NCBI GenBank assembly: GCA_963744305.1
Contig: CAVUTF010000016.1
Coordinates: forward strand, 4,459-68,458
Reading direction: 5' to 3'
DNA length: 64,000 nucleotides
Source: an uncultured Gammaproteobacteria bacterium
GTDB lineage: Bacteria; Pseudomonadota; Gammaproteobacteria; Steroidobacterales; Rariloculaceae
The position numbers and the translations under genes are program-made. How positions within the stretch are numbered: the first letter of the stretch is position 1; every line of letters begins with the position of its first letter. Below the pieces are notes generated by a model, which saw only the letters and a program-made list of their open reading frames with translations, did no database searches and was not told the origin of the DNA. Shown one piece after another: positions 5,439-40,060 of the stretch.

Positions 5439-5690
5439 ATGAAGCCACTAGTGCTCACTTTGTTTTTCCTAACTGCTAGCGCCTTTGCGCAGAACACGCA
5501 CGACCCCGTGCAACTATGCCGACAAATCTTCAGCCTCGAACAAGCTGTCGGGAAACTGCTCGTCAAGTTCCCAGAAAACCATCCCGACATCGTATTGCTG
5601 CGCAAAGAGATCGAAGCGCAGCGCACGCTGCTTGAGCAAGTGGCGCCCGGTACTTGTTTAGTTCGCCGAATAGCGCCGAATACGAACTAA
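5439..5690 (+). CDS. small exported protein, unknown function; C-terminus possibly truncated by the adjacent IS remnant
   Basis: ATG 5439 gives signal peptide MKPLVLTLFFLTASAFAQ followed by helical-looking sequence. It sits in a lower-GC patch, and its 3' end overlaps the transposase remnant. No homology recognised. Confidence 0.35.
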   Translation: MKPLVLTLFFLTASAFAQNTHDPVQLCRQIFSLEQAVGKLLVKFPENHPDIVLLRKEIEAQRTLLEQVAPGTCLVRRIAPNTN

Positions 5691-5900
5691 GACGTCGGGG
5701 CGATGGAGCGTCGGCCGCGTGCGGACGATGGTAATTGTAGTAGTCCTCCCACTCACGGAGCTTCTGTATGAGATTCTCCTGGTGGCGCCGGCGTTCGCGG
5801 CACGTTCCGCGACCGATCGTCGATGCGCGGCCCGCCGTCGTGCCGATCCGACGAACGACGGCCGCTGCATCGGTGTGCGTGACCTCCGGCCGAAGCTGCG
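5660..5900 (-). mobile_element. degraded C-terminal remnant of a DDE (rve-type) transposase/integrase
   Basis: The minus-strand frame of track ORF 5563..6417 reads ..ENLIQKLREWEDYYNYHRPH.. (about 5719-5775), the characteristic end of the integrase core domain. Upstream sequence is only loosely rve-like and out of frame. No catalytic core and no inverted repeats were seen. Confidence 0.45.
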
Positions 5901-5960
5901 CATGCTGTCTCCAAGCAGTAACTCGTGGTGAAAGGGCCAGACGGCAGGTCGGCGAGCCGA

Positions 5961-7115: not shown

Positions 7116-7329
7116 CACTCGGGCCTCCTGTATGTTGTTCTTCGCGACCTTGCCCAATGCGAGGAGACTCGGACGGCTCGAATCGTCGGCCGATTGTAGC
7201 GCGAGATCCGTTTGGCGGTTCCTGAGGTTGACTCCCCATTTTCGGCTTCGTAGGCTCGTTAGCTCAGGGGAGCGCGCCGGTCCACAATCCGGCGGCCGTG
7301 AAATTCTTTCAACGCGTTGGGGGTGCTCA

Positions 7330-8647: not shown

Positions 8648-9263
8648 CGGCCGGAGGCTCGTCCTGCTGACCGTGGCAACACTCGCCACGAGCGTGTACG
8701 CGCAGACGGAGCAGGAGATGCGGACCGCGCCAATCCTGCGTGCCCCGGAGCCGCAAGCGGGGACCGGCCGCGGACCCAACCGGATCGGCCGCCCGCCCAC
8801 GGCACAGGAGATCGAGCAGTGGGACATCTCGATCGGGCCCGATGGCGCAGAGCTGCCGGAGGGCAGCGGAACGGCCACGCAAGGCGCGCTCGTCTTCACG
8901 CAGCGAGACTGCTCCACGTGCCACGGCCCGACGGGCGTCGAAGGACCGGCCAACGAGCTCGTCGGCGGCAAGCCCTCGACTTCGTCGAGTTACTTCCCGA
9001 TCGTGTATTGGCCCTTCGCCACGATGATCTGGGACTTCATCCATCGCGCCATGCCGTACGACCGCCCGGGTCGGCTGACGAATGACGAAGCCTACGCGCT
9101 GACGGCGTTCCTGTTGTTCCGCAACGGCATCATCGAGGAGGCGGATGTGATGGACGCGAACAGCCTGCCGCGAGTGCAGATGCCGCATCGGTCCGCGTAC
9201 ACCGTTCCCGAGCCGTGGAAGCCCGGCACGCATAAGGGGATGCAGGTCCTCGTCGGGCGGTGA
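8640..9263 (+). CDS. c-type cytochrome (SoxD/SorB-like partner)
   Basis: The ATG overlaps the upstream stop by 8 nt. Signal peptide present, and a single CSTCH haem-binding motif. Confidence 0.8.
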   Translation: MRNGRRLVLLTVATLATSVYAQTEQEMRTAPILRAPEPQAGTGRGPNRIGRPPTAQEIEQWDISIGPDGAELPEGSGTATQGALVFTQRDCSTCHGPTGVEGPANELVGGKPSTSSSYFPIVYWPFATMIWDFIHRAMPYDRPGRLTNDEAYALTAFLLFRNGIIEEADVMDANSLPRVQMPHRSAYTVPEPWKPGTHKGMQVLVGR

Positions 9264-11455
9264 GTCCGCACCTCGCACGCTGGGTGCGGCAGGCCCGCGC
9301 GATGGGCGCGGCGCTCGCCGTCGCCGCGACGGCTGTAACCGACGTCAGCGCGCAGAACGCGCATCCCCACACGCCCGGCGTGAGCGGCGTCGCCGGCGGC
9401 GTGCCGTACTTCTGCGCGAGCCCCACGACGACGAGCACTACGAGCGGGGCCTGGTCGGATGCGCGGACCTGGTCGAACGGCCGCGTGCCGGGCCGCGACG
9501 ACAAGGTCGCGATTGCCTCGGGCCACACGGTCACCTATGGCATCACGGCCGACGTCGATCTCAACTGCATCGAAGTCGGCGGCACGCTCGCGTTCGCGAC
9601 CGACGTCGACACACGCATGCGCGTCGGCACGATCATGGTGCTCGAGAACGGCGCCCTCGAGCTTGGTACGGTGGCGCAGCCCATGCAGGCGGACGCCACG
9701 AGCGTCATCGAAATCGTCGACCGGCCCTTTCTCGACGTCGACCCGGAGCAGCTCGGCAACGGCATCGTCGTGTTGGGACGGCTGTCGGCGCACGGCGCCG
9801 TGAAGACGCCGACGTTCTTGCGGCTCGCCAAGGATGCGCGGGCCGGCGAACGCGCGCTCGAGCTGGAAGGCTCCGTCGACGGGTGGCGACCCGGCGATCA
9901 CCTCGTCGTGCCGGACACGCGACAGCTGCGAGCGGGACAGAACGGGCGCGACTACCAACCGCAGACCGAGGTCGTCGAACTAGAGTCCGTCACGGCGGCG
10001 AGCGTCCGGCTCACCGCACCGCTGCGCTACGATCACTCCGGCGCGCGCAACGGCGACGGCACGACGGCGTTCCTGCCGCATGTCGCGAATCTCAGCCGTA
10101 ACGTGATCGTGCGTTCCGAGAATCCGGACGGCGTGCGCGGGCATCTGATCTTCGTGTCGCGCGCCGACGTCGACGTTCGCTATGTCGAGCTCGACGAGCT
10201 CGGACGCACGAAGATGGGCATCCTCGACAACACGCGCATCGCCGCCGACGGCCGCGTGGTGAAGATCGGCACCAATCAGATCGGCCGTTACGCTCTGCAC
10301 TTCCACCACACGTTCGGGCCGCGCGCGACGCCGGCGAGCGGCTACCAGTTCATGGCCGTCGGCAACGCGATCAACGGCTCGACCAAATGGGGCATCGTGG
10401 TGCACAACAGTCACTACGGCCTCATTCAGGGCAATGTCGTCTTCAACACGCGCGGCGGCGGCATCGTGACCGAAGACGGCACCGAGAGCTTCAACGTGTT
10501 CGAGCGCAACTTCTCGCTGCTCACGGCCGGCTCGCGAGACGCGGCGCCCAACAACGGCTACAGCGCGACGCTGCCGAACCCCGGCGGCGAGGGGTCGGCG
10601 TTCTGGTTCCGCGGGCCCAACAACTACATCCGCAACAACGTCGCCGCCAACGCCGCCGAGTCCGGGTTCGGGCTGCCGGTCACGGCGCTGGGCGTTGTTC
10701 GGATTCCGCGGTTCAAAGGCGCCGACACGAGCCTCGAAGCGGAAACCGTGCCGCTCGATACGGACGCAGCGGAGGTGCCGGAGTTCGTAAACAACGAAGC
10801 CTACGGTGCGCTGCGCAACGGCGTGACGTGGGCCTGGAGCGGCCGCATCGGCGAGTTCAGGGTCTGGCATGCATCCGATCGCGGCGTGTCGGCGAATCCC
10901 ACCCAGCGCGTCACGGTCGACGGGTTGATTGCCGTCGGCGACGCGTCGGTGCTGACGAGCGCCGAGAACCATCCGGTCGGCGTGTGGGTCGGCAACTACG
11001 TGGCGCGAGAGGTCACGGTCGATCGCGCCGACATCGGCGGCCTACGCGTTGGCGTCGAGAGCCCATTCTTCTATGGCCGTCCCCGTGACGCCAAGCGCGA
11101 CGGAATGCTCACGATCGCGAACAGCACATTTCGCACGAACGTGGGTGTGTCGGTCGCGACCGGGTACGTCGATGACGCGCACGCGGGCGCGCCGACCAAG
11201 AAGGCCGTCGTGAGGAGCTCGGTCTTCGAACCGCTGCGCATCGCGGCGAGCCCCGTGCCAGCCGAAGCGATCTCGATGAACTACGGCATGGCTCCACGCG
11301 ACCCTTCCCCGCGTGAGCCGCTGCTCGTTTACGACTTCAACGAGCAGACCGGGCGCAGCTTCAAGGTCTACTACTCACTGCAGGCACCCGAAGCCGTGGC
11401 GCCCTGCCACGACACGGTGCCCACCATCGGCGGGTGGGTCTGCGACGTCGACTGA
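9260..11455 (+). CDS. G8-domain / right-handed parallel beta-helix protein, exported
   Basis: The GTG overlaps the cytochrome stop (GTGA). G8-like N-terminus WSDARTWSNGRVPGRDDKVAIASGHTVTY...IEVGGTLAF...LGNGIVVLGRLSAHG, then beta-helix repeats (NSHYGLIQGNVVFNTRGGGIVTEDG...). Confidence 0.7.
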   Translation: MSPHLARWVRQARAMGAALAVAATAVTDVSAQNAHPHTPGVSGVAGGVPYFCASPTTTSTTSGAWSDARTWSNGRVPGRDDKVAIASGHTVTYGITADVDLNCIEVGGTLAFATDVDTRMRVGTIMVLENGALELGTVAQPMQADATSVIEIVDRPFLDVDPEQLGNGIVVLGRLSAHGAVKTPTFLRLAKDARAGERALELEGSVDGWRPGDHLVVPDTRQLRAGQNGRDYQPQTEVVELESVTAASVRLTAPLRYDHSGARNGDGTTAFLPHVANLSRNVIVRSENPDGVRGHLIFVSRADVDVRYVELDELGRTKMGILDNTRIAADGRVVKIGTNQIGRYALHFHHTFGPRATPASGYQFMAVGNAINGSTKWGIVVHNSHYGLIQGNVVFNTRGGGIVTEDGTESFNVFERNFSLLTAGSRDAAPNNGYSATLPNPGGEGSAFWFRGPNNYIRNNVAANAAESGFGLPVTALGVVRIPRFKGADTSLEAETVPLDTDAAEVPEFVNNEAYGALRNGVTWAWSGRIGEFRVWHASDRGVSANPTQRVTVDGLIAVGDASVLTSAENHPVGVWVGNYVAREVTVDRADIGGLRVGVESPFFYGRPRDAKRDGMLTIANSTFRTNVGVSVATGYVDDAHAGAPTKKAVVRSSVFEPLRIAASPVPAEAISMNYGMAPRDPSPREPLLVYDFNEQTGRSFKVYYSLQAPEAVAPCHDTVPTIGGWVCDVD

Positions 11456-11569
11456 CTGTTGAGCGCCGCTTTCATCCGCGCTATCCGCCGGCGAACGTGT
11501 GCACGCCGTGCGTAGCGAGCGCTAAACTGCGTCAGAGCGAATTGCCGACTCGGGGATCCGGGGGGAGCC

Positions 11570-12619
11570 ATGCATTCGACAGCGACGTTGATGTGTCTCG
11601 TCACCGCGGGCCTTGTGAGCCACGCGTCTCTTGTGTCCGCGCACCACTCGCGGGCGAACTTTCAGCTCGACAAGCTCGTTGAGCTCAGCGGCGTCGTCAC
11701 CGACGTCAAGTGGGCCAATCCACACGTGTACTTCGAGATGAAGCTCGAGGACGGCGAGACCTGGCTGATCGAGGGACATTCTGTTCCGGGTGCTTTGGGG
11801 CTCGGCTGGACTCGGGACACCCTCAAAGTCGGAGACCAGATTCGAATCGGCGCCAATCCCAATCGGAATACTGACAAGGAGTTCGCGCTGCTCCAGTGGG
11901 TGGTCGCAGCCGACGGCCTTGTGTACCCCGCGTTTTCGAGCCGGCAGATCCCAGCGGGGCTACTGGCCGCAGCGAGCGCTGGAGCGACGAGGAGCGACGA
12001 GCCTGCCGTGCAGCCCTCCACGGATTTCTCCGGCGTTTGGGAGGTGGACCTGCGCGGCGTCAATCTCACTACCGGAGTCTTCGATCCGGAGCCGGGCGTG
12101 CCTCTGACCGCCATCGGAGAGGAACAGGTCGCCCGTTTCGACGCCGACGAGAACCCTAGTTTCCAATGTATTACGAGTGGCATACCGTTCACGGGACCTT
12201 ACGGCCTGAAATTCACGCGCTACGACAACCGGCTCGTGATGGAAAAGGAGCACCAGGACGTGCGGGTCACCGTCTGGCTGAACGAGCCACCCGCAACTCC
12301 CCCGCCGCCGAGCCATCTCGGCTTCTCGGTCGGACGCCTAGAAGGTGATGACACACTGGTGTTCGAGACGACGCGTTTCACGCCTGCCAAATGGGGCATC
12401 TCCCGCGGTGTGGACTCGAGCGATATGAAGCACATCAAGGCCCGATTCGAGCTCCAGCCAGGGGGCCTTGCCATCGACTTCACGTACGAGATCACCGATC
12501 CGGTGTATCTGACGGCACCGCTGATCCGTACGGGCGTGCTGTTGAAGAAACCAGACCGCGAATTCATCGACGAACCTTGTGATCCGGCGATTAGCTCGTT
12601 GCATTTGAGCCAAGAATGA
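11570..12619 (+). CDS. fused HHS-NPH + GDTLV-domain exported protein, module 2
   Basis: ATG 11570 (GGGGGAG SD) with signal peptide ending ..SLVSA then HHSRAN and WANPH. After a linker come TDFSGVWEV, SFQCITSGIP, GRLEGDDTLVFETT, EITDPVYLTAPL, DEPCDP. Confidence 0.8.
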   Translation: MHSTATLMCLVTAGLVSHASLVSAHHSRANFQLDKLVELSGVVTDVKWANPHVYFEMKLEDGETWLIEGHSVPGALGLGWTRDTLKVGDQIRIGANPNRNTDKEFALLQWVVAADGLVYPAFSSRQIPAGLLAAASAGATRSDEPAVQPSTDFSGVWEVDLRGVNLTTGVFDPEPGVPLTAIGEEQVARFDADENPSFQCITSGIPFTGPYGLKFTRYDNRLVMEKEHQDVRVTVWLNEPPATPPPPSHLGFSVGRLEGDDTLVFETTRFTPAKWGISRGVDSSDMKHIKARFELQPGGLAIDFTYEITDPVYLTAPLIRTGVLLKKPDREFIDEPCDPAISSLHLSQE

Positions 12620-12635
12620 CTCGTCGAACGCAGGG

Positions 12636-13788
12636 TCAAAGCAGGGCAGCGAGCCGATGAAACTCGCGTCGCAGCATGCGGATGCGATCGTCGTTGCGGG
12701 TCGGATGCACACGGTTGCTGAGCAGCACGTAGATGGCCCGCGTCGGCGGATCGATCCACAAGCTCGTGCCCGTGAACCCGAGGTGGCCGAACGCGCGGCT
12801 CGACAGCGCGTGCCCGGTGGCGCCGCTGCCATCGGGACTCGGACCGTCGAAGCCGAGCCTGCGCGTTGAGCCGGGCACGGCCGAGGGTGTCGTGAAGGCG
12901 GTGATCACCGTCATGCTCGCATCGACGTCGAGCAGCGGTAGCGGCCCGTCGAGCCAAGCGCGCGCGAGCGCCAGCACGCCTGTCGCCGTGCCGAATAAGC
13001 CGGCATGCCCGGCGACGCCGCCCATCACGAGGCAGTTGTCGTCGTGCACGAGGCCGCGCGCGGTAGCCTGGCCGGCTCGCTCGCGAAGCGCATACCAGTG
13101 CGGCGGCGCGCCGTCGTGCAGGCTCGCGTCGTAGACTTCGGTCGCGGCGACCTCGCCGGAAGGTAAGGGCACGAGAGCCGGAAAGCCGAGCTCGCGCGCA
13201 AGCCCGAGCGGTCGCGCGACGCGATCCATGAACAGCTGATCGAGGCGTGCGCCACCGAGCTGCTCGAGCCATGCACCAAGCAGCAGGAAGCCGAGATCGG
13301 AGTAGATCGCCTGCGTGCCCGGCGGCGCCGCCAAGGGCACGCGCCGCGCCGCGGCGATGAGCTCGTCGCGCGCCCCGATGTCGAGCCACCAGGGTTCATA
13401 AAAGAATTCGCGGTGAGCCACGAGCCCGCTTGCGTGCTCGAGCAAGTCGCGCAACGTCGGCCGGTAGCGCTCGACTTGGCCCATTGCGGTCGGTACGTCT
13501 AGCGCGAGGGAGGCCGGCAGCCGATCGTCGAGCGCGAGCCGTCCAAGCCCGACTGCTTGGGCGGTCTAGTGTCGTGGTCGCGAGTACCTTGGTCAGCGAC
13601 GCGAGGTCATAGCGAGTCGCGAGCGAGACCGGCTCGAGCTCGGCGTGCGCGACGCCGTGCCGCGCGAGCCACCCGTGCGCACCTGCGTAGCGCAGCTCGC
13701 CGTCGCGCCACACGAGCGCCACACAGCCGGGTGCGATCTCGGCCGCGATCGCTTCGCGCAGCAGCTCGTCGAGTGTGTCGGCGCTCAC
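12636..13788 (-). CDS. beta-lactamase-related serine hydrolase (class C/EstB-like); apparent frameshift near 13565
   Basis: The N-terminal part lies in the frame of track ORF 13396..14640 (..YDLASLTKVLATTTL, an SxxK motif). It continues as AQAVGLGRLALDDRLPASLALDVPTAMGQVERYRPTLRDLLEH in track ORF 12636..13484 (YSDLGF, GHLGFTGTS). The start at GTG 13788 is tentative. Confidence 0.75.
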
Positions 13789-14259
13789 GCGGCGAGCTTG
13801 CCGAAGCGGGGCGGCGCTGGCTAGTTCGCCGACGACGTTTCTCGTTCGCAGCGCTGTGGGACGCGCGGCTGCGGTTGGACCGGTTGAATCAGTTGTAGTC
13901 GATCTGCATCCAGCGCGCGAGCCGCTCGGCGGGCAACACAAGTGCGGGACCGGCCACGCGAACGCCGCGAGCACCCCTGCTCGAGTATGTTCTGCGTAAC
14001 GCGCAGATTTCTCCACGAATCGGCCGTCGGCCGGCGACGCAGCTCTGGCGGCCGACGCCTCAGGGCTCGTCGCCGAACCGCCTCGTGCACCTGCAGCAGC
14101 GTGAGCCCAGTGAAGGTCCCGAGGTGGTTCTCGCATGTGGCCCGGCAGGCTACCTTCGCGTACCCTACCGCGAGCCCCCGGCGCCGACGCTGCTTCACTA
14201 GACTCGTGAAACCGGCAGGGGAGTCGGCCCCGCTGGCGGTCGAGGAGTCGCAATGCGGC

Positions 14260-15240
14260 TTGTCGTTTGGAGTGCCGTTGCTGGCCGCGTTGGCCCTCAA
14301 CGCCCCCGTCACGACCTTCGCTCACCATTCGGTCGCGTACTATTCGACCGAGATGATCGAGCTCGAGGGCGAGATCACGAAGATCGAATGGCAAAATCCG
14401 CACATCCGATTTGAGTTGCGCGCCGTCGATAGCGACGGTGCCGGAAAGACATGGCGGCTCGAAGCCAGCGCGATCTTCTTGCGCGAGAAAGAGGGTGTGA
14501 CGCGCGACCTCTTTCATGTTGGCGACGCGGTGAAAGTGTACGGACGTCCGGGGCGCCAAGATTCGTCCGCCTTGCTCGTGACGAATATGCTGCTTCCGGA
14601 CGGCCGAGAGGCACCGCTTTGGCCGAACACGACCGCGCACTTTGTGACGCTAGACAAATGGATCACCGCGAAGCCGCAGCTTGTTGAAGCGGCCGCGGAA
14701 AATCGAGGACTCTTCAGGGTATGGCGGCCGAACGGGGCTTCGCTCGCGGCGCTACCTTATACGGACACGGCGGTGGCTGCTCGCAAGTCGTTCGACCTGC
14801 TCGCTGCTGCCGGACGCTGCGGCCCGGAAGGTATGCCGCGGATCATGATCACGCTGTTCCCCTATGAGTTCGTTGACCGCGGCAACGAGATCTTGGTACG
14901 CGCGCAGCTATACGACACTGAGCGCGTCATTCATATGGATCGCACCGCGCCGCCGCCGGGTGAGCCTCATTCCGTGCTTGGTTACTCCGTGGGAGAATGG
15001 CGTGACGGCGTGCTGGTGATCAAGACGAGCCTCGTTAACTGGCCATATTTCGATCAGATCGGTACGCCGTTGAGCCCGGACGTGCAGATCGAGGAGCGCT
15101 ACACCGTGAGCGACGATCAGACTCGGCTTGATGTCGAAATCACGGCTACCGATCCGAGCACATTCACGGAGCCCGCGATCATCCAGAACTCGTGGTTGGC
15201 TTACGGCGACACGATTCAGCGCTACGAGTGCGTTAGATGA
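14260..15240 (+). CDS. fused HHS-NPH + GDTLV-domain exported protein, module 3
   Basis: ..LLAALALNAPVTTFA then HHSVAY and WQNPH; C-half AAGRCGPEGMPRIM, GYSVGEWRDGVLVIKTS, ITATDPSTFTEPA, QRYECV. The start is uncertain: in-frame TTG 14260 or GTG 14272, while an ATG at 14253 with a perfect GAGGAG SD is out of frame, hinting at another indel. Confidence 0.7.
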   Translation: MSFGVPLLAALALNAPVTTFAHHSVAYYSTEMIELEGEITKIEWQNPHIRFELRAVDSDGAGKTWRLEASAIFLREKEGVTRDLFHVGDAVKVYGRPGRQDSSALLVTNMLLPDGREAPLWPNTTAHFVTLDKWITAKPQLVEAAAENRGLFRVWRPNGASLAALPYTDTAVAARKSFDLLAAAGRCGPEGMPRIMITLFPYEFVDRGNEILVRAQLYDTERVIHMDRTAPPPGEPHSVLGYSVGEWRDGVLVIKTSLVNWPYFDQIGTPLSPDVQIEERYTVSDDQTRLDVEITATDPSTFTEPAIIQNSWLAYGDTIQRYECVR

Positions 15241-15458
15241 TGGTGCCGACTGCGGCGATCGTTACACACGCGCCGCGAAACGCACCATGCGGGTAAGACA
15301 GCGTCAGCGCAGAGCGCTGACGCGATCGAGGTAATCAGCGCCGTAACGCCTCCGGAGGCCGGCTAGATGTCGTTGGTCCGCGTGTCTTCGGAACGTGTTT
15401 AGCCGGGCGGGCCTGCGAAGTGAACCTCGCTGCACCCCGCATGCAGGAAACGCGAGTA

Positions 15459-15728
15459 TTACCGTGAGGTTCCGTGGTACTCACCGAGCAGGCAATGAGC
15501 GAGCTCGTGGCCGAGGTAAGTTGTTCGGCTGTCGTTAACGACCTGCGGGCGCTCTGCAAAAATCAAGCAAACCCACTCGCCGTTTCGCTTGCCCAGGACT
15601 GAGAAGCTCTTCACGCCATCGTCCCGTCGATAGGGGCCGAGGCGCGGGCCCGCCTGGGAGCGCTGAAGACGAGACTCGTAGCGCTTTCTGATCTCGGCGA
15701 GCTCCAGGCTGTCGGCGACCCAAGTCAC
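15459..15728 (-). CDS. short HExxH metallopeptidase-like ORF (possible gene fragment)
   Basis: 89 aa ending ..YLGHELAHCLLGEYHGTSR, with the HELAH zinc-binding motif close to the stop. No partner gene, and it lies in an 830-bp poorly coding stretch. Confidence 0.3.
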   Translation of the reverse strand: MTWVADSLELAEIRKRYESRLQRSQAGPRLGPYRRDDGVKSFSVLGKRNGEWVCLIFAERPQVVNDSRTTYLGHELAHCLLGEYHGTSR

Positions 15729-16070
15729 CTCAACGAGAACCGCGGAGAGATCGAGGGTGGGCTCGATGCAGCTCGGCCGCCATCGAGGCGGCGTTCGACA
15801 AGATCAATAGGCCCGCGAGAATACGGCTCCGCGCATGTCTGCGTGGCGGGATCACGTGGGCGATCCGGATCGAGGGTCGGCAGGTTTGTCGATTTCGTCT
15901 CGAAGCCACGTCGTCGTTACCGGGTGTCTACTCTCTTGGTCGATGGACGGGCCGGAGAAACGAGGTCTTCGGGCGGAACACCACCGTAGAGAAGGTCCCC
16001 TCAAAAAACATGGTCGTACGCTAAGATGATCTAAGACGGTCTCAGATCTCCTCGAGCAAGGGGGCGACGA

Positions 16071-18061
16071 GTGGACGAACGGCCCGTGATCTATCGTTTT
16101 GGTCGATTCGAGCTCGACGGTGGGCGCCGATCGTTGCGATCCACCGAGCCCGACAGAGCGGTCGCGCTGAGCGGCAAACCCTTCGATACCTTGCTTTATC
16201 TCGTCGAGCACCGCGGGCGGCTCGTCGGGAAGCGAGAGCTGCTCGAGGCGGTGTGGTCGAGCGTGGTCGTCGAGGAGGCCAATCTCGCCCAGACGATTTC
16301 GGTGCTCCGGCGCGCGCTGGAAGACGACGCCCGAGCGCATGTATACATCGCGACCATCGCAGGGCGCGGGTATCAATTCATAGCTCCCGTTGAAGTCGTA
16401 GCGTCGGAGTCGCCCGGCCCGGCTAGCGCGGCGCCGACTGTCGCTTCGCCGGAGTCGGATGCGGGGGCACGCTCGACGGCCGAGGCCGCGTATGCCAGCC
16501 GGAGCGATGCGCGACTGCACGTCGAGAGGTTGCGTCTCGCCGTGGTGGTCGCGTTGGTTGTCGTCGTTTTCGCTATCGGCGCAGGACGGTGGGTCTTCAA
16601 CGGCGGCGATGAGGGCGCGCGAGAGACTGCGTCCCGCTTGCCAAACTCCGTTGCCGTGCTGCCCTTCGAGGACCTGAGCCCGGATCCCGGCGACGCGTCC
16701 TTGGTGTTAGGAATTCAACAAGAAATCATCTGGCGACTGCAAAAGATCGAAGATCTCACTGTGATTCCGTGGAGCGCGGTCAGGCGTTACGCAGACACAC
16801 AAGCGCCTCTTCCGGAGATCGCCGCCGAGCTTCGTGTCGAAGCAGTTTTGCATGGCTCGATCCGCTACGCGGACGAGAGCGTCAAAGTCGTGCTTGAGTT
16901 GATTGACGGCCAAACCGGCGCGCTCCTCTGGACCGATCGGCACGACGGCGATCTGCTCGATACGTCAGACTTTCAGTCCAAAGTCGCAAGCACGATTGCC
17001 GATGAACTAGGTGCGAAGCTGCTGCCAACCGAGCGCGAAAGCATCGCGACTCGCCTGACAGAAAGTCCGGCGGCCTATGCGTACTACCTCAAAGCTGTCG
17101 CCGCCCTAAACGAGAGATCGTTGGACGAAAGTCTTCACTACCTCGATCGGGCGATTGCCCAAGACGCCGAGTTCCCCGCAGCCCACGGTCTCAGGGCGAT
17201 GAACCTGGCGTGGAGTCGTGATCACCACGACGCGCGTGGCCCTAGCGAGCTCGAGGACGTGCGTCCGCGGAGCAGGAGGCTCTGGCAGCCGCGACCAAAG
17301 CATTGAACGGGGATGAGAGCGTAAGCTCGGCGTGGGTGGCGCGAGCCAACCTTCATTTATTTCATTGGCGATGGAAACAGGCCGGCGAGGCTTACGAGAA
17401 GTCGATGGTGTTGGGCGCCAAGGATGCGAACACGTTGGTGCAATGCGCCGGCGTCCATTTCATCATCGGGAATCACGAAAAGGCTGTCGCGGTGTTTCGA
17501 CAAGCGATCGCCGTGGATCGCAACAGAGCCGATCTTCACTATTCGCTCGGGTTTGTGTTGGGCCTACTCGGTCGCCACGATGAACAGCTGGCGGCGTATC
17601 GTAGGGCATTCGAATTGGACCCCACATCCCCACTATTTCAGCGCGCCATTGGCGTCGCCCAACTGCGTCTCCAGCATGTTCGCGAAGCGGAGAAAGCGTT
17701 TCGCGACGCGGAGCATCTGATGGAAGGCTATCCGGGGCGGGAAATATGGTTACCCGGCCTCGCCTACGGCTACGCGATGTTGGACATGGACGACGACGCG
17801 GTGCGCCTGGCTAGGGAATACCTGTCAGGGGAGAACCGTTCCGGTGGCGCCGGCGACCGGGCCTTGGCTCACCTTGCGATGCGCGAACAAGGGAAAGAGC
17901 AGGCGCTCGCGGAGCTGAACGCGGCTGTTACGAAAATAGAGGCCGAAGAGCTTGACGCCGGATGGTGGGGATTGGTCGGCATCAAGTACAACTATCTCGG
18001 CGATCCCATGCTCGATCAACCGCAGTTCCGCGATTTGCGGGAGCGTATTCGCGGCCGTTGA
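16071..18061 (+). CDS. membrane-anchored winged-helix (OmpR/CadC-type) transcriptional regulator with periplasmic TolB-N-like and TPR domains; apparent frameshift near 17255
   Basis: GTG 16071 gives YRFGRFELD..SGKPFDTLLYLVEHRGRLVGKRELLEAVWS..IAGRGYQF. It has a TM helix LAVVVALVVVVFAIGAG and NSVAVLPFEDLS.., and TPR repeats continue in track ORF 17303..18061. Confidence 0.75.
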
Positions 18062-25577: not shown

Positions 25578-26338
25578 CTACTTGACCGACAAAAGGCCCT
25601 CCGCACACGAGAACTCGCGCAGCTCGTCGTTCGGCGGCGATGCTTTCCGATACGTACGAATCTGGGTGTGGGGTTCGAGTAACGCCTTCGGATCCGTTGC
25701 CGTGATCCGATCCTCGAGGATGCCAGGCGACGTAAATCTGATGCGCTCGTGCACGGTGAGCTGATCGCTGTGCGGCGAGAACAGGTCGAGCAGCGTGTCC
25801 TCGCGAATGGCCACGGTGTCGACGACGAGCGTGTCGCCTTCCCAATGCCCGACGGAATACCCCCCGAACGTCGGATCGTCGAGCGTTCTCTGTGACGGCT
25901 TGCGTCCGTCCAGATAAATCCGGCGATACACGTCGTTCAGCTCGCCGTACATGCTGACCTTGTCCTTCGTCTGCTGAATTTCCATGCCGTAGCCCATCGA
26001 CATCATCCCGGGCATGCCGGCAGAGAGGCAGTTGGCGTTCGGATCGGTGTCAGACTCTCCAGCCATGCGCGACTGCCGCATGGCCTCCCACTTGGCAAGG
26101 TACTCGGGCGCGAGCTTGGGCGCGGTCGCCGGCCGGCCCTCACGCCCGTCGATCACCCTCACGGGTCGCGGCGGCGTCCCCGCACCGCGCGGCGCGGCTG
26201 GCGCCGCGTCCGCGTTAAACGGATAGTACACGCCGGAAAAATCCGGATGCGCCGGCGTCTCCTGCGCGCGAATCATGCCGTCGATCCAGGCAGCAGGCAT
26301 ACGAGCGCCACGGAAAGCACAGCAATGGTCTTCGACAT
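25578..26338 (-). CDS. GDTLV-domain exported protein, module 4; apparent frameshift near 26290
   Basis: ATG 26338 (GGAGGGAGG SD, 21 nt after the stop of 26360..26731) encodes signal peptide MSKTIAVLSVALVCLLP and then hits a TGA. The mature part continues in track ORF frame: HPDFSGVYYP, NANCLSAGMP, YLDGR, GHWEGDTLVVDT, ITATDPKALLEP, EFSCAEG. Confidence 0.75.
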
Positions 26339-26359: not shown

Positions 26360-26731
26360 TTACTGAGGCGTCGTCTGTGACAGCACGGTGCCATCGGCGA
26401 GCGTGACGCGCGTGGCGAGACCGGTGTGGCTGCCGTCCCTCGCCGGGCTGAAATCCACCGTGATCGTGTCGCCGGGCTTGAAGGTGTTCTTCGACCATCC
26501 GGAACGGGCCAATATGCCGGGCGGGCGGCCCTCGATCTCCCACGCCGTCTTGCCGCCGTTGCCGTCGTCGACCGACAGAAAGATCCACACGTGCGGGTTC
26601 GTCCACCTCCATTCCGTGACCGTGCCTTTGAGCACGACCACCTTCTCGGGGTCGAACGCCGAGTTGCTGTGGTGCGCGAGGGCGGACGTCGCCGCCAGCA
26701 GCACCGCGATGACAACAAGCCAGGTTCTCAT
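26360..26731 (-). CDS. small exported HHS-NPH domain protein (DUF6152-like), module 4
   Basis: ATG 26731 (GGGAGG SD) gives MRTWLVVIAVLLAATSALA then HHSNSAFDPEKVVVLKGTVTEWRWTNPHVW. Confidence 0.85.
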   Translation of the reverse strand: MRTWLVVIAVLLAATSALAHHSNSAFDPEKVVVLKGTVTEWRWTNPHVWIFLSVDDGNGGKTAWEIEGRPPGILARSGWSKNTFKPGDTITVDFSPARDGSHTGLATRVTLADGTVLSQTTPQ

Positions 26732-26777: not shown

Positions 26778-26793
26778 CTATGGGTGCCCATAG
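26778..26793. promoter_or_regulatory. 16-bp palindrome CTATGGGtgCCCATAG in the divergent promoter region between modules 4 and 5
   Basis: Perfect 7-bp arms, roughly central in the 128-bp intergenic region 26732-26859. A second small inverted repeat ACTGTttACAGT lies at 26810-26821. A regulatory role is inferred only. Confidence 0.3.
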
Positions 26794-26859
26794 AACGTCG
26801 GCCCCCTATACTGTTTACAGTCGACTAAGGCCCACTAGAAGCCGCTTCGGAGGTTGGCG

Positions 26860-27240
26860 ATGACGCGAAATCTTCTGGCCATCTTTGCACTCGTGGCGGT
26901 CACGGGGCCCGTTTTCGGTCACCACTCGGAAACGGCGGAGTTCGATCAGAGCAACCCGGTGAAGGTGACCGGCACCATCGTCAAAGTGGAATGGCTGAAT
27001 CCGCACGTCTGGTTCTACGTCGACGTGAAGGATGAGAAAGGAGACGTAACGACCTGGGGATTTTCCGGAGCGCCTCCGGGTGCTCTGATGCGTCGGGGCA
27101 TCACCAAGGAGGTCCTGAAAATCGGCGCGGTCGTCAACGTCGAAGGCTCACGCGCACGCGATGGGTCCAACAACGCTTCGGGCCGCAGCGTGACTTTCCC
27201 CGACGGCAAGAACGTGTTTACGGCAACACGAAGGTGGACG
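26860..27240 (+). CDS. small exported HHS-NPH domain protein (DUF6152-like), module 5; no in-frame stop before the next gene
   Basis: ATG 26860 (GGAGG 6 nt upstream) gives MTRNLLAIFALVAVTGPVFG then HHSETAEFDQSNPVKVTGTIVKVEWLNPHVW. It reads straight into ATG 27241 in the same frame. A TGA overlapping that ATG (ATGA) exists in the +2 frame, suggesting a lost frame near 27215-27240. Confidence 0.75.
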
Positions 27241-28007
27241 ATGAAAAACGCATGGCTACGGTCGAGCGTTCTTGCCGCAGCGATGGTGCTTGCGGCGGCC
27301 GCAACCTCGAGCGCTCAGGACATTCCCCGTATGCCGGACGGGAAGCCGGACTTCTCCGGTATCTACACGCCGCCATCAACGGTGAACGCGACCGGTCCCC
27401 GCGGCAACCTGATCTTCAACGCGGACAAGATGGCTCCGGTCAAGCCCGGCGCCGAAAGCTTGCTCTATGAGGCCCGCAACGGTGACCCGCGTCACGATGA
27501 GCCGCGCGCGATGTGCCTGCCGGCAGGCTTTCCTTCCGGCATGCTGTACATCTTGCCGATTCAGATCGTCCAGAATCCCAATCACATCGTGATCATTCCG
27601 GAGCTGCAGCGCGCGGCCCGGATCATCCCGACCGACGGTCGCCCGCACCGAGAGGGGATCGAGCCCTCGTACTACGGCGACTCGGTGGGACGGTGGGAAG
27701 GAGACACGCTCGTCATCGATACCGTCAACTTCAAGCGCTGGATCCTGGACGACTATCATTACACCGACCCGACCAAGACCCGCTGGCACAGCGATGCGCT
27801 CCGCACGACCGAACGCCTGAAGCGTGACGGCGACAAGCTCCTCTACCAGATCACGATCGACGACCCGAAGATTTTCATGCGGCCGTTCTCGCAGGACTTC
27901 GAATTGACGTTGCGCCCGGACTGGGAGAGCTCGGCCTTCTGGAGTACGTTTGCGAGGAGAACAATCGGTGCGCGGGAGGAAACTGCCGTCCGTCGGACGT
28001 TCAGTAG
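27241..28007 (+). CDS. GDTLV-domain exported protein, module 5; apparent frameshift near 27926
   Basis: ATG 27241 with AAGGTGGA SD and its own signal peptide MKNAWLRSSVLAAAMVLAAAATSSAQ. Motifs DGKPDFSGIY, RAMCLPAGFP, IPTDGR, GRWEGDTLVIDT, ITIDDPKIFMRPF. After ..RPDWE the family C-terminus LGLLEYVCEENNRCAGGNCRPSDVQ-stop (TAG 28005-28007) is in the -1 frame, so the track ORF end at 28155 is spurious. Confidence 0.75.
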
Positions 28008-29954: not shown

Positions 29955-31375
29955 ATGAAAGTGATCGTGACCGGGCTGATCGCCGTCATGCTGCCTACAG
30001 GCGCAAGCCCAGAACGACGGCCAAGGCCTGACGGTATTCGAAGGTGCACGGCTCATCACCGGCGACGATGCGCCGCCGATCGACGACGCCGTCTTCGTCG
30101 TCGACGGCTCCTTGTTTGCGGCCGTTGGGCGGCGCGGCGACGTGCCGATTCCAGCAGGCGCGGCGCGTGTCGACCTCACCGGCAAGACCGTCATGCCCGG
30201 CAAGGTCGATCTCCACGGTCACATCGGATTCCAGCGCGCCGCCGACGGCACGATGGCCAAGGAGTACTACACGCGCGCGAACCTCATCGATCATCTCGAG
30301 CGACTGGCTTATTACGGCGTCAGTGCCGTGGTCAGTGTGGGTGACCTCGTGGATCGCAGCGATCTTACGGGCGGCCGCACCGGCTGGGGCGACGTGCCGC
30401 TGCGCGTCCGGGAGGAGGTGATTCCCGGCGCTGCACTGTTTCGCACGGCAGGCCCCGGCATCGCCTGGCCGGGCGCAGGTCCGCAAGGTCACCCGTCGAG
30501 GACCGACGTTCCTTACCCCGTCACGACCGCCGCGCAAGCGCGCGCCGCCGTCGCGGACTACGCGCGCATGCGGCCCACGTTCGTCAAGATCTGGATCGAC
30601 GACCGTGAGGGCACGATGAGCACTTTGCCGCCGCCCGTGTATCGCGCCGTGATCGAAGCGGCTCACGAGGCGAACCTGCCCGTGGCCGTGCACAACGTCA
30701 CGCTCGCGAACGCCAAGGAGCTCGTACGGGCCGGTGTCGTCGGTTGGCTGCACCTTCCCGTGCGTGGCGGCGAAGTGCCCGACGAGGAGCTGCTCACGAT
30801 GATCCGGGACAGCGCGACGCGCGGAGCGGCGCGCATGTGGTTCCATCCGAACGTTGGCACGGCGGCGACTAGCCCCGAAGATTGGAACGATCCGCTGCTC
30901 AAGGACACGGTGTCCGAGGAGCTCATCGAGAAGTATTGGGGCGAGACACTCCGGGCCCGAACACCGGAAGCCATCGCGCGCGCCAAGGAGAATCTGCGCC
31001 GCCTCGGCGAGACGACGGCGTTGCCGCTGAGACGCGCCGGGATGAAGATCGTGTTCGGGAGCGACACCGGCCAGAGTCGGTTCTTCATCGGCTGGATGGG
31101 GCAGCTCGAATTCGAAAATTGGGTGACCATGGGACTCACGCCGGCCGAGGCCATCGTCGCGGCGACGCGTGATTCGGCCGCAGCCGCTGGGCCTCAATAC
31201 CGGGCTCGTCGCGCCGGGGCGCAGTGCCGATTTCGTCGTGCTCGATGCGAATCCCCTAGCGGACATCGTCAACTCGCGACGGATCGCGGCCGTCTATCTG
31301 CGCGGCGGCAAAGTCGATCGCGATGCACTCAGAGCGAAATGGCAAGCGGAGTCGTCTCGGGAGGCAGGTCGCTAG
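29955..31375 (+). CDS. metal-dependent amidohydrolase (PF01979-like), exported; two apparent frameshifts (about 30000 and about 31185)
   Basis: ATG 29955 gives MKVIVTGLIAVMLP.., then AQAQNDGQGLTVFEGARLITGDD.. in the frame of track ORF 30112..33702. Blocks VDLHGHIG, VAVHNV, FGSDTG. The C-terminus LGLNTGLVAPGRSADFVVLDANPLADI lies in track ORF 31169..31375. Confidence 0.75.
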
Positions 31376-31377
31376 GT

Positions 31378-32389
31378 ATGAAGAAAGACAAGAGAGGGGC
31401 TTCTATGAAGAAACAGATGCGTGCAGGACTGTTCGTGGCGGCCTCCCTGGCGGCCACGGCGCTGTACGCTCAGGGCGGCGACTCGCGCACCGTGACCGCC
31501 GAGCAGTACGCGCGCTGGAAGACGGAGCTGTCCAACTGGGGGCGCTGGGGCGCGACCGACGAGATCGGCGCATTGAACCTCATCACGCCCGAGAAGCGGC
31601 GGCAGGCTGCCGGGCTCGTCCGCGACGGCGTGTCCGTGTCGCTGGCCTCGGACGCCGATACCGTACAGGCCGTCGACAATCCGCAACCTTACGAGGTCAC
31701 GATGCAGAGCATCGCCTCTGACCGGATCGCCGTGAGTTATCACGGCATCACCCACACGCACCTCGACTCGCTCGCGCACATCAACGAGCAGGGCGTGTTC
31801 TACAACGGCTACAAGCCGGAGGAGGCCGCGGTCCTCGCGAGTGGGCATGCGAAGAACTCGATCCACAACGTCAAGAACGGCGTGTTCACCCGCGGCATCT
31901 TGATCGACATCCCGAGGCTCAAACGCGTGCCCTACCTCGAGCCCGGGACGCCGATCTACGTCGAGGACCTCGAGGCATGGGAGAAGGAGGCGGGGATCAG
32001 AGTATCGGCGGGCGACGCGTTATTCGTGCGCACGGGCGTCTGGGCACGGCGCAAAGCCGTTGGACCGTGGCTGCGGGGTCGCGCGGAAGGCGGACGCTCG
32101 GCGGGGCTCCACCCGTCCGTTATCCCCTGGCTCAAAGCGCGCGATGTTGCGCTGCTCGGTAGCGACCATCCGCAGTATGTCTCGCCGGGAGAGACCGGGG
32201 CCCCGCGCGGGCGCGGTACACGACTTCGCGCTCGTGTACCTCGGCGTGCACTTGTTCGACAACTGCGACCTCGAAGCGCTGGCCGAGGCGGCTGCCGCAC
32301 GCAACCGGTGGGAGTTTCTCCTGACCGCGGCACCGCTGCCCATTCGCGGCGGTACGGGATCGCCGCTCAATCCAATCGCGACCTTCTAG
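31378..32389 (+). CDS. cyclase-family protein (kynurenine formamidase-like), exported; apparent frameshift in G4C4 at about 32197-32204
   Basis: ATG 31378 (or 31405). Signal peptide ..GLFVAASLAATALYAQG, then HGITHTHLDSLAHI. The C-terminus AVHDFALVYLGVHLFDNCDLEAL...RGGTGSPLNPIATF lies in track ORF 32060..32389. Confidence 0.8.
32345..32389 (+). repeat. 45-bp direct repeat, copy 1 (last 14 codons plus stop of the cyclase gene)
   Basis: cgcggcggtacgggatcgccgctcaatccaatcgcgaccttctag; 44/45 identical to 33710..33754. Confidence 0.9.
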
Positions 32390-32451
32390 GAAATCTGCAT
32401 CGAGTACGATGTCGTCGCAAATGCGAAGTTGAAGAAGGCACCGGACTACTT

Positions 32452-33702
32452 ATGACTGAGCACATCGTGAAGCTGGGTGGCGCGGCGCGCGCGTGTGTTT
32501 GCGCTGCCGTCGTGTTGGTCGCGTTCGCCCTTTCGTATGGCGCCGCCGACGCGGCTCCGCGAGTGCCGCCAGCGCCGCAAGCGGAGCGCAGCGCCGAGCA
32601 ACAAGCCATCGCTGCGGAGTTCGACGCGCTCGGCGCGCCGAACGCAGTGGCCACGTATCTCCGGCATCCGAAGCTCGCGACGAGCATCCTTCCGTACTTC
32701 CGCTACGTGGCGACTGCCACGGCGCTGCCGCCGCATGACCGCGAGCTCATCGCTCTGCGCACGGCTTGGCTCACGCGTTCGAGCTACCTGTGGGCGCATC
32801 GCGCGGCTGCGGCGAAGACAGTGGGGCTCACGGACGACGATCTCAGGCGGATCGCCGTCGGGCCCGCGGCCGCGGGCTGGGACGCGTTCGACGCCACCTT
32901 GCTGCGCGCCGCCGACGAGCTGCACGTCGATTCGTTCCTGAGCGACGCCACTTGGCGTGCCCTGACCGATCGGTACGACGTAAACCAGATGATCGATCTC
33001 GTGTACGGCATCGGCGACCTTACGATGCACGCCGGCGCGCTCAACACGCTCGGCGTCGAAGTCGAAGCCGGCCTTCCGCATCGTCTGCCCGAGGGCATTC
33101 CGTACACGACTGCCGCGCAGCGAACGAACCAGCGGCTCATCGGCAAGGCGGCGCGAATCCCGCCGCTGCAACCGCACGAGTGGTCACCCGAGCTGCGTCA
33201 ACGGCTCGATCCGACGGGCTCGGGGCGGCCCGCCGCGAACGTTTTCGCGACGTTCGTCCGCAACCCGCCCGTCGATGCGATCCGCAGCGCGGTCCCCGGG
33301 CACATTCGCGCGAACACGTTGTCGGATCGGCACCGCGAGCTGCTGCTCACGCGGATCGGCGTGTTGTGCCGATCGGAGTACGAGTACGCGGCACATTTGC
33401 GTGCCGGGCGTCGCGTGGGAATCACGGATGCGGACGTCGAGCGCATCACGAAGGGCCCCGAGGAGACGGAAGGCGACCCGCTCGACACGGCGCTGCTGCG
33501 CGCGACGGACGAGCTTTACCGGGACGATCGCATATCGGACGAGACGTGGGCGGCGCTCTCCGCCAAGCTCGATACGCCGCAGCTGCTCGACGTGCTGATT
33601 GCGGTCGGCGGCTATCGGGCCGCGTCGATGGCGATCAACAGCGCAGGTGTTCAGCTCGACGACAGTATGGCGGAGTTCCGCTTCCCGCCCGAGTTGCGCT
33701 AG
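32452..33702 (+). CDS. carboxymuconolactone decarboxylase (AhpD-like) family protein, two CMD domains, exported
   Basis: ATG 32452, in the same frame as the upstream genes. Signal/anchor ..ACVCAAVVLVAFALSYGAADA. Duplicated blocks RELIALRTAWLTRSSYLWAHR and RELLLTRIGVLCRSEYEYAAH. Confidence 0.75.
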   Translation: MTEHIVKLGGAARACVCAAVVLVAFALSYGAADAAPRVPPAPQAERSAEQQAIAAEFDALGAPNAVATYLRHPKLATSILPYFRYVATATALPPHDRELIALRTAWLTRSSYLWAHRAAAAKTVGLTDDDLRRIAVGPAAAGWDAFDATLLRAADELHVDSFLSDATWRALTDRYDVNQMIDLVYGIGDLTMHAGALNTLGVEVEAGLPHRLPEGIPYTTAAQRTNQRLIGKAARIPPLQPHEWSPELRQRLDPTGSGRPAANVFATFVRNPPVDAIRSAVPGHIRANTLSDRHRELLLTRIGVLCRSEYEYAAHLRAGRRVGITDADVERITKGPEETEGDPLDTALLRATDELYRDDRISDETWAALSAKLDTPQLLDVLIAVGGYRAASMAINSAGVQLDDSMAEFRFPPELR

Positions 33703-39643: not shown

Positions 39644-40060
39644 CTACTTCTTGATGTCGAAGAATCCGTCATCAACGGGCTCTGCCGTTCCGCCGTCCCA
39701 ATCCTTGATGGATCCATCGGCGGCTTGCACGAAGCCGAGAAGACAGCCTTCCGATCCGTCCCTGAGTTGGTGGCAACGCGCCTTGATCTTGTCGCCGGGC
39801 TTGATGTAGCCCGGCACGACGCCGATCTTTAGAAGCCCCGCGCGGCCGGTGGCCTCCAACGCCCAGGTGGTCGCTTCACCGTTTGCGCTCTTCACTTCCA
39901 GGTACACCCAGGAGTGCGGATTTATCAGTTGCACTTCGGTGACCGTCCCCTGCACGTCGATGAAATCCTGTTTGTAGTTGCCGTGTGAATGATGTGCCGA
40001 GACGGGCAGCACGAGCGCCACCGCACAGATGACACCAAGACCGCAGGCCTTAAGCGACAT
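39644..40060 (-). CDS. small exported HHS-NPH domain protein (DUF6152-like), unpaired copy
   Basis: ATG 40060 (AGGAG SD) gives MSLKACGLGVICAVALVLPVSA then HHSHGNYKQDFIDVQGTVTEVQLINPHSW. Confidence 0.85.
   Translation of the reverse strand: MSLKACGLGVICAVALVLPVSAHHSHGNYKQDFIDVQGTVTEVQLINPHSWVYLEVKSANGEATTWALEATGRAGLLKIGVVPGYIKPGDKIKARCHQLRDGSEGCLLGFVQAADGSIKDWDGGTAEPVDDGFFDIKK

Follow-up and report, generated by a model that had tools for sequence, protein, structure and literature searches.

A predicted His-His mature N-terminus and a candidate metal site in DUF6152, a secreted OB-fold family with six copies on one gammaproteobacterial contig

The 64,000-nucleotide stretch of contig CAVUTF010000016.1 from an uncultured gammaproteobacterium analyzed here (the window, at its full length) codes for six domains of the Pfam family DUF6152 (PF19649), one of which is encoded by the minus-strand gene c4 at positions 26360-26731. 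As judged from sequence comparisons, members of this family are strongly predicted to start with His-His after removal of a signal peptide, and the model obtained for c4 assigns the mature domain to the oligonucleotide/oligosaccharide-binding (OB) fold. These features may best be explained by a mononuclear metal site built around the N-terminal His on a periplasmic OB-fold module, with the metal left unspecified, a reading which is proposed tentatively and in which we place slightly less than even confidence. The c4 open reading frame (ORF) is complete, running from an ATG at 26731 to a TGA stop at 26360-26362, and codes for 123 amino acids. Its precursor reads MRTWLVVIAVLLAATSALA up to the predicted cleavage site and continues with HHSNSAFDPEKVVVLKGTVTEWRWTNPHVW or, in a longer form, with HHSNSAFDPEKVVVLKGTVTEWRWTNPHVWIFLSV and onward to a terminal TPQ; the codons of the signal peptide occupy positions 26675-26731, those of His1-His2 26669-26674 and those of a distal Asn-Pro-His motif 26591-26599. 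The protein matches the Pfam model with E = 9e-35 and 119.1 bits (gathering cut-off 27), while a scan of c4 against NCBIfam gave no match.

A phmmer search over all stop-to-stop ORFs recovered six DUF6152 domains from the window (c1 to c6), all of which match the Pfam model, and the pairwise identity among the aligned copies is only 25-37%. The residues invariant in all six are H20, H21, S22, G36, N45, P46, H47, W64, G78, G87, R98, D113, and G114 (numbering of the c4 precursor), and every copy shows a hydrophobic signal peptide followed by HHS and then by NPH, at an HH-to-NPH spacing of 24-26 residues. A sequence-only reading of this stretch had proposed that cleavage would leave a His-His N-terminus in all six copies, and this observation is confirmed, since an h-region, Ala or Gly at position -1, and HH are found by rule in 6/6. 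The same reading had described the cleavage site as A-x-A or G directly before HH, which holds for position -1 (Ala in five copies, Gly in c5) but not for position -3, where Ala occurs in c4 only and the remaining five copies have L, V, T, V, and V. The motif given there as W-x-NPH is constant in its NPH part, but the residue two positions before NPH is Trp in four copies, Phe in c1, and Leu in c6. A second (-3,-1)-compatible site lies four residues upstream in c1, c2, and c4 (ASA before S, SHA before S, and TSA before L, respectively), and the prediction of the cleavage site from any single sequence is therefore not unique.

The family as a whole gives a clearer view of this site. An exhaustive profile search yielded 16,626 representatives of 50%-identity clusters at E <= 1e-3, 9,754 of them at E <= 1e-10, and the signature counts were taken from the best 150 of these representatives. 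The full signature, consisting of an h-region, A/G/S at position -1, HH followed by S, A, G, or N, and xPH, is present in 145/150; in these signature-bearing sequences xPH follows HH by exactly 24-26 residues, with HH typically located at residues 21-30. Position -1 is occupied by Ala in 132 representatives, Gly in eight, and Ser in three, position -3 by A, V, or L, and the third mature residue is Ser in 125, Ala in 13, and Gly in six. A second, independent set, drawn from 80 genome loci plus plasmids, shows a signal peptide, HH, and PH in 153/153 domains. Expressed in mature numbering, conservation amounts to 97% for H1, 98% for H2, 85% for S3, 98% for F/Y7, 87% for D8, 97% for G17, 89% for W24, 97% for N26, 100% for P27 and H28, 98% for W45, 89% for E48, 96% for R/K79, and 90% for G95. 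The columns of the signal peptide are conserved to less than 50%, except for Pro at -4 (65%) and Ala at -1 (89%), and conservation jumps to 97% exactly at His1, as is expected of a mature N-terminus. The cleavage site was called from the (-3,-1) rule together with this conservation pattern, and the consensus of the c-region has Pro at -4, one of Ala, Val, or Leu at -3, and Ala at -1. No twin-arginine motif was seen in the n-regions as read from the sequences, which points to export by the Sec system. The predicted mature N-terminus is not of the amino-terminal Cu(II)- and Ni(II)-binding (ATCUN) type with NH2-X-X-His, because position 3 is Ser in 85% of the sequences and otherwise Ala, Gly, or Asn; the sequence needed for NH2-X-His is present in the form of His2, with the free amine depending on the predicted cleavage. 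The conservation of D8 and E48 fits a His/carboxylate metal site. Three close homologs (P0020, P0102, and P0104) carry the JGI label "plastocyanin," an identity which was rejected in view of the OB-fold and the lack of Cys/Met copper ligands.

Whether the free N-terminus matters can be judged from the arrangement of DUF6152 relative to a second secreted protein, which is usually encoded next to it and is referred to here as the partner. Unfused neighbors on the same strand occur in both orders, with 34 pairs in which DUF6152 comes first and 36 in which the partner does, mostly at spacings of -4 to +25 nt. All fusions have DUF6152 first and directly after the signal peptide (10 ORFs in the collected loci, c2 and c3 of the window, and the homologs P0224, P0337, and P0394), which corresponds to p ~1e-3 to 1e-4 for ~8-13 independent fusions at 1:1 prior odds, uncorrected for phylogeny. 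P0371, a candidate for the reverse order, retains the signal peptide of its DUF6152 domain internally and was rejected as a frameshift artefact. The combination of HH with the distal His is found in 145/150 N-terminal domains vs 0/10 internal or tandem domains. Four of these internal domains keep HHSY but have KPR, NPR, GGR, or FPN instead of NPH (the second domains of P0259, P0264, P0272, and P0279), with Arg at position 28 in three of them and Asn in one; four others have lost HH, and in P0335 both internal domains retain NPH but not HH. In these sequences, the complete triad is thus confined to domains in which HH is predicted to form the mature N-terminus. Together with the DUF6152-first fusions, the loss of the triad in internal domains suggests that the free N-terminus matters, and these two patterns are the strongest arguments added here for an N-terminus-dependent site. 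The change from His to Arg at position 28 is compatible with what appears when a side-chain cation replaces a metal.

The AlphaFold2 model of mature c4, computed from a 36-sequence alignment, has a mean predicted local distance difference test score (pLDDT) of 91.5 and a predicted template modeling score (pTM) of 0.84. The secondary structure elements assigned by DSSP (E13-23, E30-36, E42-48, H52-56, E70-78, and E84-92) follow the order b1-b2-b3-alpha-b4-b5, and the modeled domain is thus an OB-fold. A Foldseek search against the PDB returned only generic OB domains with E values of ~1e-3 and query-normalized TM-scores (TMq) of 0.5-0.6, the best matches being the anticodon-binding domain of LysRS, the mitochondrial SSB Rim1, and Stn1-Ten1. 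The best sequence-based PDB match from single-sequence and profile searches had E = 0.26, which is at chance level and indicates that no DUF6152 structure has been solved. Eight residues of the model fall below a pLDDT of 70, with the last four averaging 52 and the first ten 75, so that the first ~4 residues including His1-His2 belong to its low-confidence part. The model places NPH in loop L12, E48 at the end of strand 3, and D94-G95 directly after strand 5. In the canonical OB topology, L12, the end of beta3, and the C-terminus of beta5 share one end of the barrel, from which we infer a spatial clustering of the conserved residues; following the same textbook topology, the conserved 12-residue N-terminal segment, which starts from the opposite end, could reach the end carrying NPH, E48, and D94-G95. 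A mean-field direct coupling analysis (433 domain sequences; effective number, Neff, 235) of the docking of this segment near the NPH loop returned terminal-gap artefacts as top couplings and no signal for the invariant His residues.

According to the mechanism proposed on this basis, DUF6152 would be a periplasmic or secreted OB-fold module of ~100 residues, in which export by Sec and cleavage by signal peptidase I after ...P-[AVL]-x-A would expose His1-His2 as the mature N-terminus. A single transition metal ion might then be bound in a mononuclear site at one end of the barrel by the alpha-amine, the imidazoles of His1 and His2, and His28 from the N-P-H turn of L12, probably joined by Asp8 and/or Glu48. 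Such a site would represent an N-terminal-His chelate, either brace-like or of the NH2-X-His type known from NikM. Coordination chemistry makes Cu(II) the default guess for the metal, Ni(II) and Zn(II) being serious contenders. In this scheme, the module would act together with its co-transcribed or fused secreted partner, putatively a weakly calycin-like barrel stapled by a probable disulfide; in alphaproteobacteria it is also encoded alongside pairs of four-transmembrane-helix (4-TM) DUF6644 proteins and sometimes a TonB-dependent receptor. Its likely role would be to capture a metal or metal-ligand complex in the periplasm or to hand it on, or to serve as a small redox cofactor protein, while a function as a component of classical copper homeostasis appears less likely.

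Several observations weigh against such a metal site. Metal binding is a prediction from the sequence pattern, and the AlphaFold2 model, which as an apo model constitutes weak evidence either way, has low confidence at its N-terminus, where His1-His2 are located. To our knowledge, there is no precedent for a histidine brace on an OB-fold, and the alignment of DUF6152 by hhalign with the OB-fold metal chaperone CusF gave a probability of 1%. Genes for Cu, Zn, or Ni homeostasis or transport are absent from the window and from the annotated recurrent neighbors of the family, no metal riboswitch was found in the window, and six paralogs within 64 kb would be unusual for a metallochaperone. Moreover, HHSY persists in several internal second domains, where a free amine is lacking, so that a structural role of HH is possible as well, and the exchange of His28 for Arg would equally fit a role in binding an anion or in hydrogen bonding.

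This exchange leads to an alternative without any metal, in which the N-terminal HHS-x3-[FY]-D stretch, together with the NPH turn, would give the canonical ligand face of the OB-fold a polar surface, either for an organic or anionic ligand or for the docking of the partner or of a DUF6644 membrane protein. Besides the replacement of His28 by Arg in second domains, it would accommodate the generic use of OB-folds as ligand-binding modules, the tight linkage to the partner by 4-bp overlaps and fusions, the existence of solo DUF6152 arrays among the loci, and a genomic neighborhood that is catabolic or sulfonate-related rather than metal-related. However, it leaves unexplained why HH is found exactly at the mature N-terminus, why the fusions are DUF6152-first, and why the triad is lost in internal domains, and the set of three His, Asp, and Glu is more typical of cation sites; we regard this alternative as rather unlikely, if worth keeping in view. 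The four internal second domains that keep HHSY without His28 are also in line with a purely structural motif, in which HH and NPH would form a hydrogen-bonded cap stabilizing the barrel and no significance would attach to the N-terminal position, and AlphaFold2 indeed folds the domain confidently without a ligand. Nevertheless, the near-absolute conservation of three His and two acidic residues over ~16,600 clusters appears excessive for such a cap, the ~4 N-terminal residues are the least confident ones of the model, and the restriction to the N-terminus speaks against a position without significance; we consider this explanation very improbable. Should the metal-site reading fail, the strict N-terminal architecture would still need an explanation.

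The partner family is represented in the window by c4p, the C-terminal halves of c2 and c3, c5p, and a frameshifted region after c1, whereas c6 lacks a partner domain. It is not matched by any Pfam or NCBIfam model, and a profile search retrieved 3,657 proteins. Its members carry signal peptides of their own, as exemplified by P0135 with MSKTTALLSVALVCLLPGSTASIRAQ before and ETPAHPDFSGVYY after the predicted cleavage site; the homologs of c4p have 253 amino acids and a signal peptide of the form MSKT..STASIRAQ. Among 40 aligned sequences, the invariant residues are C78, G82, P84, G134, S136, G138, L145, S165, D190, P191, P197, and C219 (numbered as in mature c4p), which bears out the claim of the sequence-only reading that the partner contains two invariant Cys, one near each end. 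Most simply, C78 and C219 form a probable disulfide. The AlphaFold2 model of the partner has a mean pLDDT of 65.6, with 70-92 in the core and less than 50 in both Cys-bearing segments, and the best matches returned for it by Foldseek, namely CRABP2, FABP, avidins, nitrobindin, and a lipocalin-like protein, have E values no better than 1.5e-3 and TMq ~0.4, so the assignment as a calycin-like beta-barrel is a low-confidence one. Two further candidate features were rejected, namely a Cu(I)-binding function of the Met-rich stretch of c4p (CLSAGMPGMMSMGYGM), which is clade-specific and missing from other partners, and an esterase nucleophile elbow at GxSxG, which lies in a predicted beta-hairpin of the barrel rather than in an alpha/beta-hydrolase fold.

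The close relatives all come from soil metagenome-assembled genomes (MAGs) of Acidobacteriota (Vicinamibacterales, Bryobacteraceae, Terriglobia), Gammaproteobacteria (Steroidobacteraceae, Woeseiaceae), and Micropepsaceae, and the family is also present on replicons of the cultured genera Novosphingobium, Sphingobium, Croceibacterium, and Azospirillum. A partner gene lies within 8 kb of DUF6152 in 76/87 loci. In five loci from Novosphingobium and Sphingobium (L083, L085, and L088-L090), DUF6152 and its partners are adjoined by a pair of 4-TM DUF6644 genes, and Azospirillum ramasamyi (L086) has a single DUF6644 gene directly after DUF6152, with no partner detected at this locus. DUF6644 proteins consist of ~165 amino acids with four transmembrane helices, one invariant His in the first of them, and invariant K, W, and R residues; they are also found adjacent to DUF6152 or in one operon with it in L009, L018, and L047, and none occurs in the window. 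A Pfam scan of these proteins gave a faint match to DUF2214 and a CopD match at E = 0.34 for one member only, and an analogy of DUF6644 to CopD was rejected after the hhalign comparison of a nine-sequence alignment with E. coli YebZ had returned a probability of 0.2%; accordingly, an analogy to CopC/CopD-type systems is not supported. A TonB-dependent receptor adjoins DUF6152 in Croceibacterium and Sphingobium.

The wider gene neighborhoods are heterogeneous. Recurrent neighbors annotated in the MAG loci include an ABC ATPase, an NHL propeller, a metallo-beta-lactamase, a pyrroloquinoline quinone (PQQ) alcohol dehydrogenase with cytochrome c, a Mo-hydroxylase, DUF1587/DUF1552, and a PETase-like hydrolase. 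The window contributes a sulfite-oxidase-like Mo enzyme with cytochrome c, propellers of the Kelch and NHL types, amidohydrolases, an M28 peptidase, and a PQQ dehydrogenase. Neither set contains copD/ycnJ, copAB, or pmoCA, and searches of the window for other riboswitches and for tRNAs found none. Directly upstream of c2, a G8-domain/CEMIP-like beta-helix protein is encoded at 9260-11455 (+), preceded at 7964-9263 (+) by a sulfite-oxidase-type molybdoenzyme and a c-type cytochrome; the Pfam match of the molybdoenzyme begins at profile position 110, its N-terminus being either missing or frameshifted. The association of G8 proteins with DUF6152 recurs across phyla, as on a plasmid of Croceibacterium atlanticum (L084), where two of them (5938-8655 and 13954-16533) flank a cluster of two DUF6152 genes, a partner, and a TonB receptor, and a GH39-like protein of the glycoside hydrolase (GH) type is encoded beside a DUF6152 copy in N. 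humi. On plasmid L088 of Sphingobium sp. TomTYG65 (1-14285), a sulfonate-utilization cluster with tauD, the binding protein of a sulfonate ABC transporter, alkanesulfonate (ssu-type) monooxygenases, and a peroxiredoxin encloses two partner-DUF6152 pairs together with a DUF6644 pair and a TonB receptor, which hints at a sulfur-scavenging context in that host. Finally, six Woeseiaceae loci (L028-L030, L034, L039, and L043) share a syntenic order of PQQ alcohol dehydrogenase, a fumarylacetoacetase-family protein, partner, DUF6152, amidohydrolase, and two further ORFs, which as identified by eye resemble the beta and alpha subunits of nitrile hydratase, the alpha-like one with a CTLCSC motif.

Within the window, c1 is a separate DUF6152 gene at 1714-2109 (+), detected as an ORF and by phmmer, with HH encoded at 1783-1788 and NPH, as part of FVNPH, at 1861-1869. 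It is followed at 2138-3975 (+) by a partner region with an extra N-terminal domain of ~340 amino acids and the partner domain proper from ~3334, interrupted by at least two frameshifts around 3200-3340. The natural fusion c2, with DUF6152 N-terminal and the partner C-terminal, extends over 11570-12619 (+) and codes for 349 amino acids (HH at 11642-11647, NPH at 11717-11725); P0224, also of 349 amino acids and with 12 member sequences, is an intact homolog of it. A second natural DUF6152-partner fusion, c3, is located at ~14253-15240 (+), with HH at 14323-14328 and NPH at 14395-14403; its ATG at 14253 lies in a different frame from the body, probably because of an indel, and a TTG at 14260 is in frame. 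The partner gene of c4, c4p, was identified by phmmer 21 nt downstream at 25578-26338 (-) and codes for a secreted protein of ~253 amino acids. Divergently from c4, the Pfam-matching c5 is encoded at 26860 to ~27240 (+), with HH at 26920-26925 and NPH at 26998-27006, followed at 27241-28007 (+) by its partner c5p, which has its own signal peptide (MKNAW..SSAQ). The 128-bp intergenic region between c4 and c5 contains the perfect palindromes CTATGGGTGCCCATAG and ACTGTTTACAGT at 26778-26793 and 26810-26821, which could be operator sites; neither occurs a second time in the window, nor is either repeated at the other copies. The solo gene c6 at 39644-40060 (-), without a partner downstream, codes for 138 amino acids with HH at 39989-39994 and NPH, as part of LINPH, at 39914-39922. 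Together with its homologs P0123-P0134 it forms a clade in which loop L45 is flanked by a conserved pair of Cys (RCHQLRDGSEGC) and the C-terminus ends in a tail, DDGFFD[IL]KK, which the other copies lack. The conserved Cys pairs of this clade and of the partner are consistent with an oxidizing compartment.

Some of these genes are affected by indels, as judged by comparison with relatives of 94-97% identity. Relative to the 94%-identical L082, c5 has a 2-nt gap at its 3' end (27225-27245) and reads through into the partner; its classification as a third natural fusion was rejected, since the merged frame is a product of such indels. In c5p, the C-terminal EYVCEENN...C motif is hidden from the main frame, owing to the loss of 1 nt near 27925. 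The c4p gene has 761 nt instead of the 762 expected, having lost 1 nt in the signal-peptide region (~26275-26338) relative to the 97%-identical P0135, and the resulting frameshift separates the signal peptide from the body of the protein. Several neighboring enzymes in the window also look truncated. Because the closest relatives come from long-read soil MAGs, the defects in the DUF6152 and partner genes are likely errors of long-read assembly, with real pseudogenization as the less probable alternative. Other irregular genes of the window are a PQQ dehydrogenase at 47376-48923 (-), which matches only positions 1-396 of the 595-position profile and is truncated or frameshifted, and a single ORF of 1196 amino acids at 30112-33702 (+) with amidohydrolase, cyclase, and CMD domains, which may represent merged genes.

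It is conceivable, although we would put this broader claim forward with clear reserve, that DUF6152 represents a large unrecognized class of periplasmic metalloproteins with an N-terminal His-His chelate on an OB-fold, forming a new two- or three-component system with the partner and, in some lineages, with the DUF6644 pair and a TonB receptor, and serving metal capture, hand-off, or redox chemistry in at least 16,000 clusters (50% identity) of soil Acidobacteriota and Proteobacteria. If the N-terminal His-His site were to bind a metal, the OB-fold scaffold would join the short list of N-terminal-His metalloproteins, which comprises lytic polysaccharide monooxygenases (LPMOs), CopC, PmoB, YcnI, DUF4198, and the anglerases, and a first functional handle would be available for one of the larger uncharacterized secreted families of soil bacteria, many of whose genomes code for several DUF6152 paralogs, usually together with the uncharacterized partner. 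The presence of the family in cultivable species of Novosphingobium, Sphingobium, Croceibacterium, and Azospirillum renders the hypothesis directly testable.

A view on the known metal-binding systems shows both parallels and clear distinctions. The literature searched contains no mention of DUF6152, PF19649, or DUF6644 and no paper pairing "histidine brace" with "OB-fold." Like CusF, a periplasmic Cu(I)/Ag(I) chaperone, DUF6152 is predicted to be a small periplasmic OB-fold protein, but it lacks the His-Met-Met/Trp site, any Met motif, and the cusCBA context. Sites of the NH2-X-His type are known from the N-termini of NikM and CbiM, which are integral membrane proteins, and from the GHK peptide. 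By analogy, His2 and the distal His of DUF6152 could provide a 4N site with the amine, an amide N, and the imidazole of His2 as donors besides the distal His, although NikM and CbiM show no homology to DUF6152.

The histidine brace, to which the sequence-only reading had likened the site, is described in PMC10952591 as a T-shaped copper chelate to which an N-terminal His contributes its amino group and pi-N and another His its tau-N. Like LPMOs (AA9-AA17), CopC, PmoB, and YcnI, the last of which contains a mono-His brace, DUF6152 is secreted, has a His as its predicted residue 1 and an invariant distal His, shares a conserved Asp with CopC, and has a conserved aromatic residue comparable to the axial Tyr/Phe of LPMOs. 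In contrast to these families, however, it adopts a predicted OB-fold instead of the Ig-like/FnIII beta-sandwich of LPMOs or the cupredoxin-like folds of CopC, PmoB, and YcnI, its His2 is invariant as well, it has no copD/ycnJ/pmo-type neighbors, and it shows no sequence relationship, with no Pfam match to the LPMO, CopC, PmoB, or YcnI (DUF1775) families even at E <= 10. As judged from the modeled fold and these searches, DUF6152 is not a member of the known histidine-brace families. The proposal of a brace-type site was thus partly supported: the N-terminal His-His and the distal His are conserved throughout the family, but fold, homology, and copper context speak against the known brace families. 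A true copper brace performing oxidative chemistry of the LPMO or peroxygenase type would employ His1 (NH2 and N-delta) and His28 (N-epsilon) in a T-shaped 3N Cu site with Phe/Tyr7 in axial position and might act on a substrate presented by the calycin-like partner. The required N-terminal His, the distal invariant His, and the aromatic residue at position 7 are all present, DUF6152 and partner are both secreted, GH-like or G8/beta-helix proteins are encoded beside some copies (window 9260-11455, Croceibacterium, and the GH39-like protein of N. humi), and monooxygenase and peroxiredoxin genes lie near the Sphingobium copies. Even so, we consider such an enzyme quite improbable, as the OB-fold does not offer the flat face of a beta-sandwich, a 100-residue barrel gives little surface for binding a substrate, His2 is conserved as strongly as His1, which is not a feature of braces, and the genomic context is heterogeneous rather than carbohydrate-specific.

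Parallels to the metal site proposed here come from a 2025 study, according to which an N-terminal His exposed by cleavage of a signal peptide chelates metals irrespective of the fold (PMC12537917). The four families examined there experimentally, namely the Ni-preferring DUF4198 with three facially capping N donors, DUF6702, and the anglerases Ang-1 and Ang-2, were found by "signal strapping," and DUF6152 is not among them (PMC12537917). Copper is not specifically indicated for DUF6152; other N-terminal-His proteins prefer nickel (PMC12537917). Like the families of PMC12537917, DUF6152 is a DUF-type secreted protein of bacteria with a conserved His at position +1, further conserved candidate ligands, and a link of some members to TonB receptors or membrane proteins. 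It differs from them in fold, theirs being beta-sandwiches or others, and in the conservation of the N-terminal His, which amounts to 65-79% in those families as compared with 97% in DUF6152.

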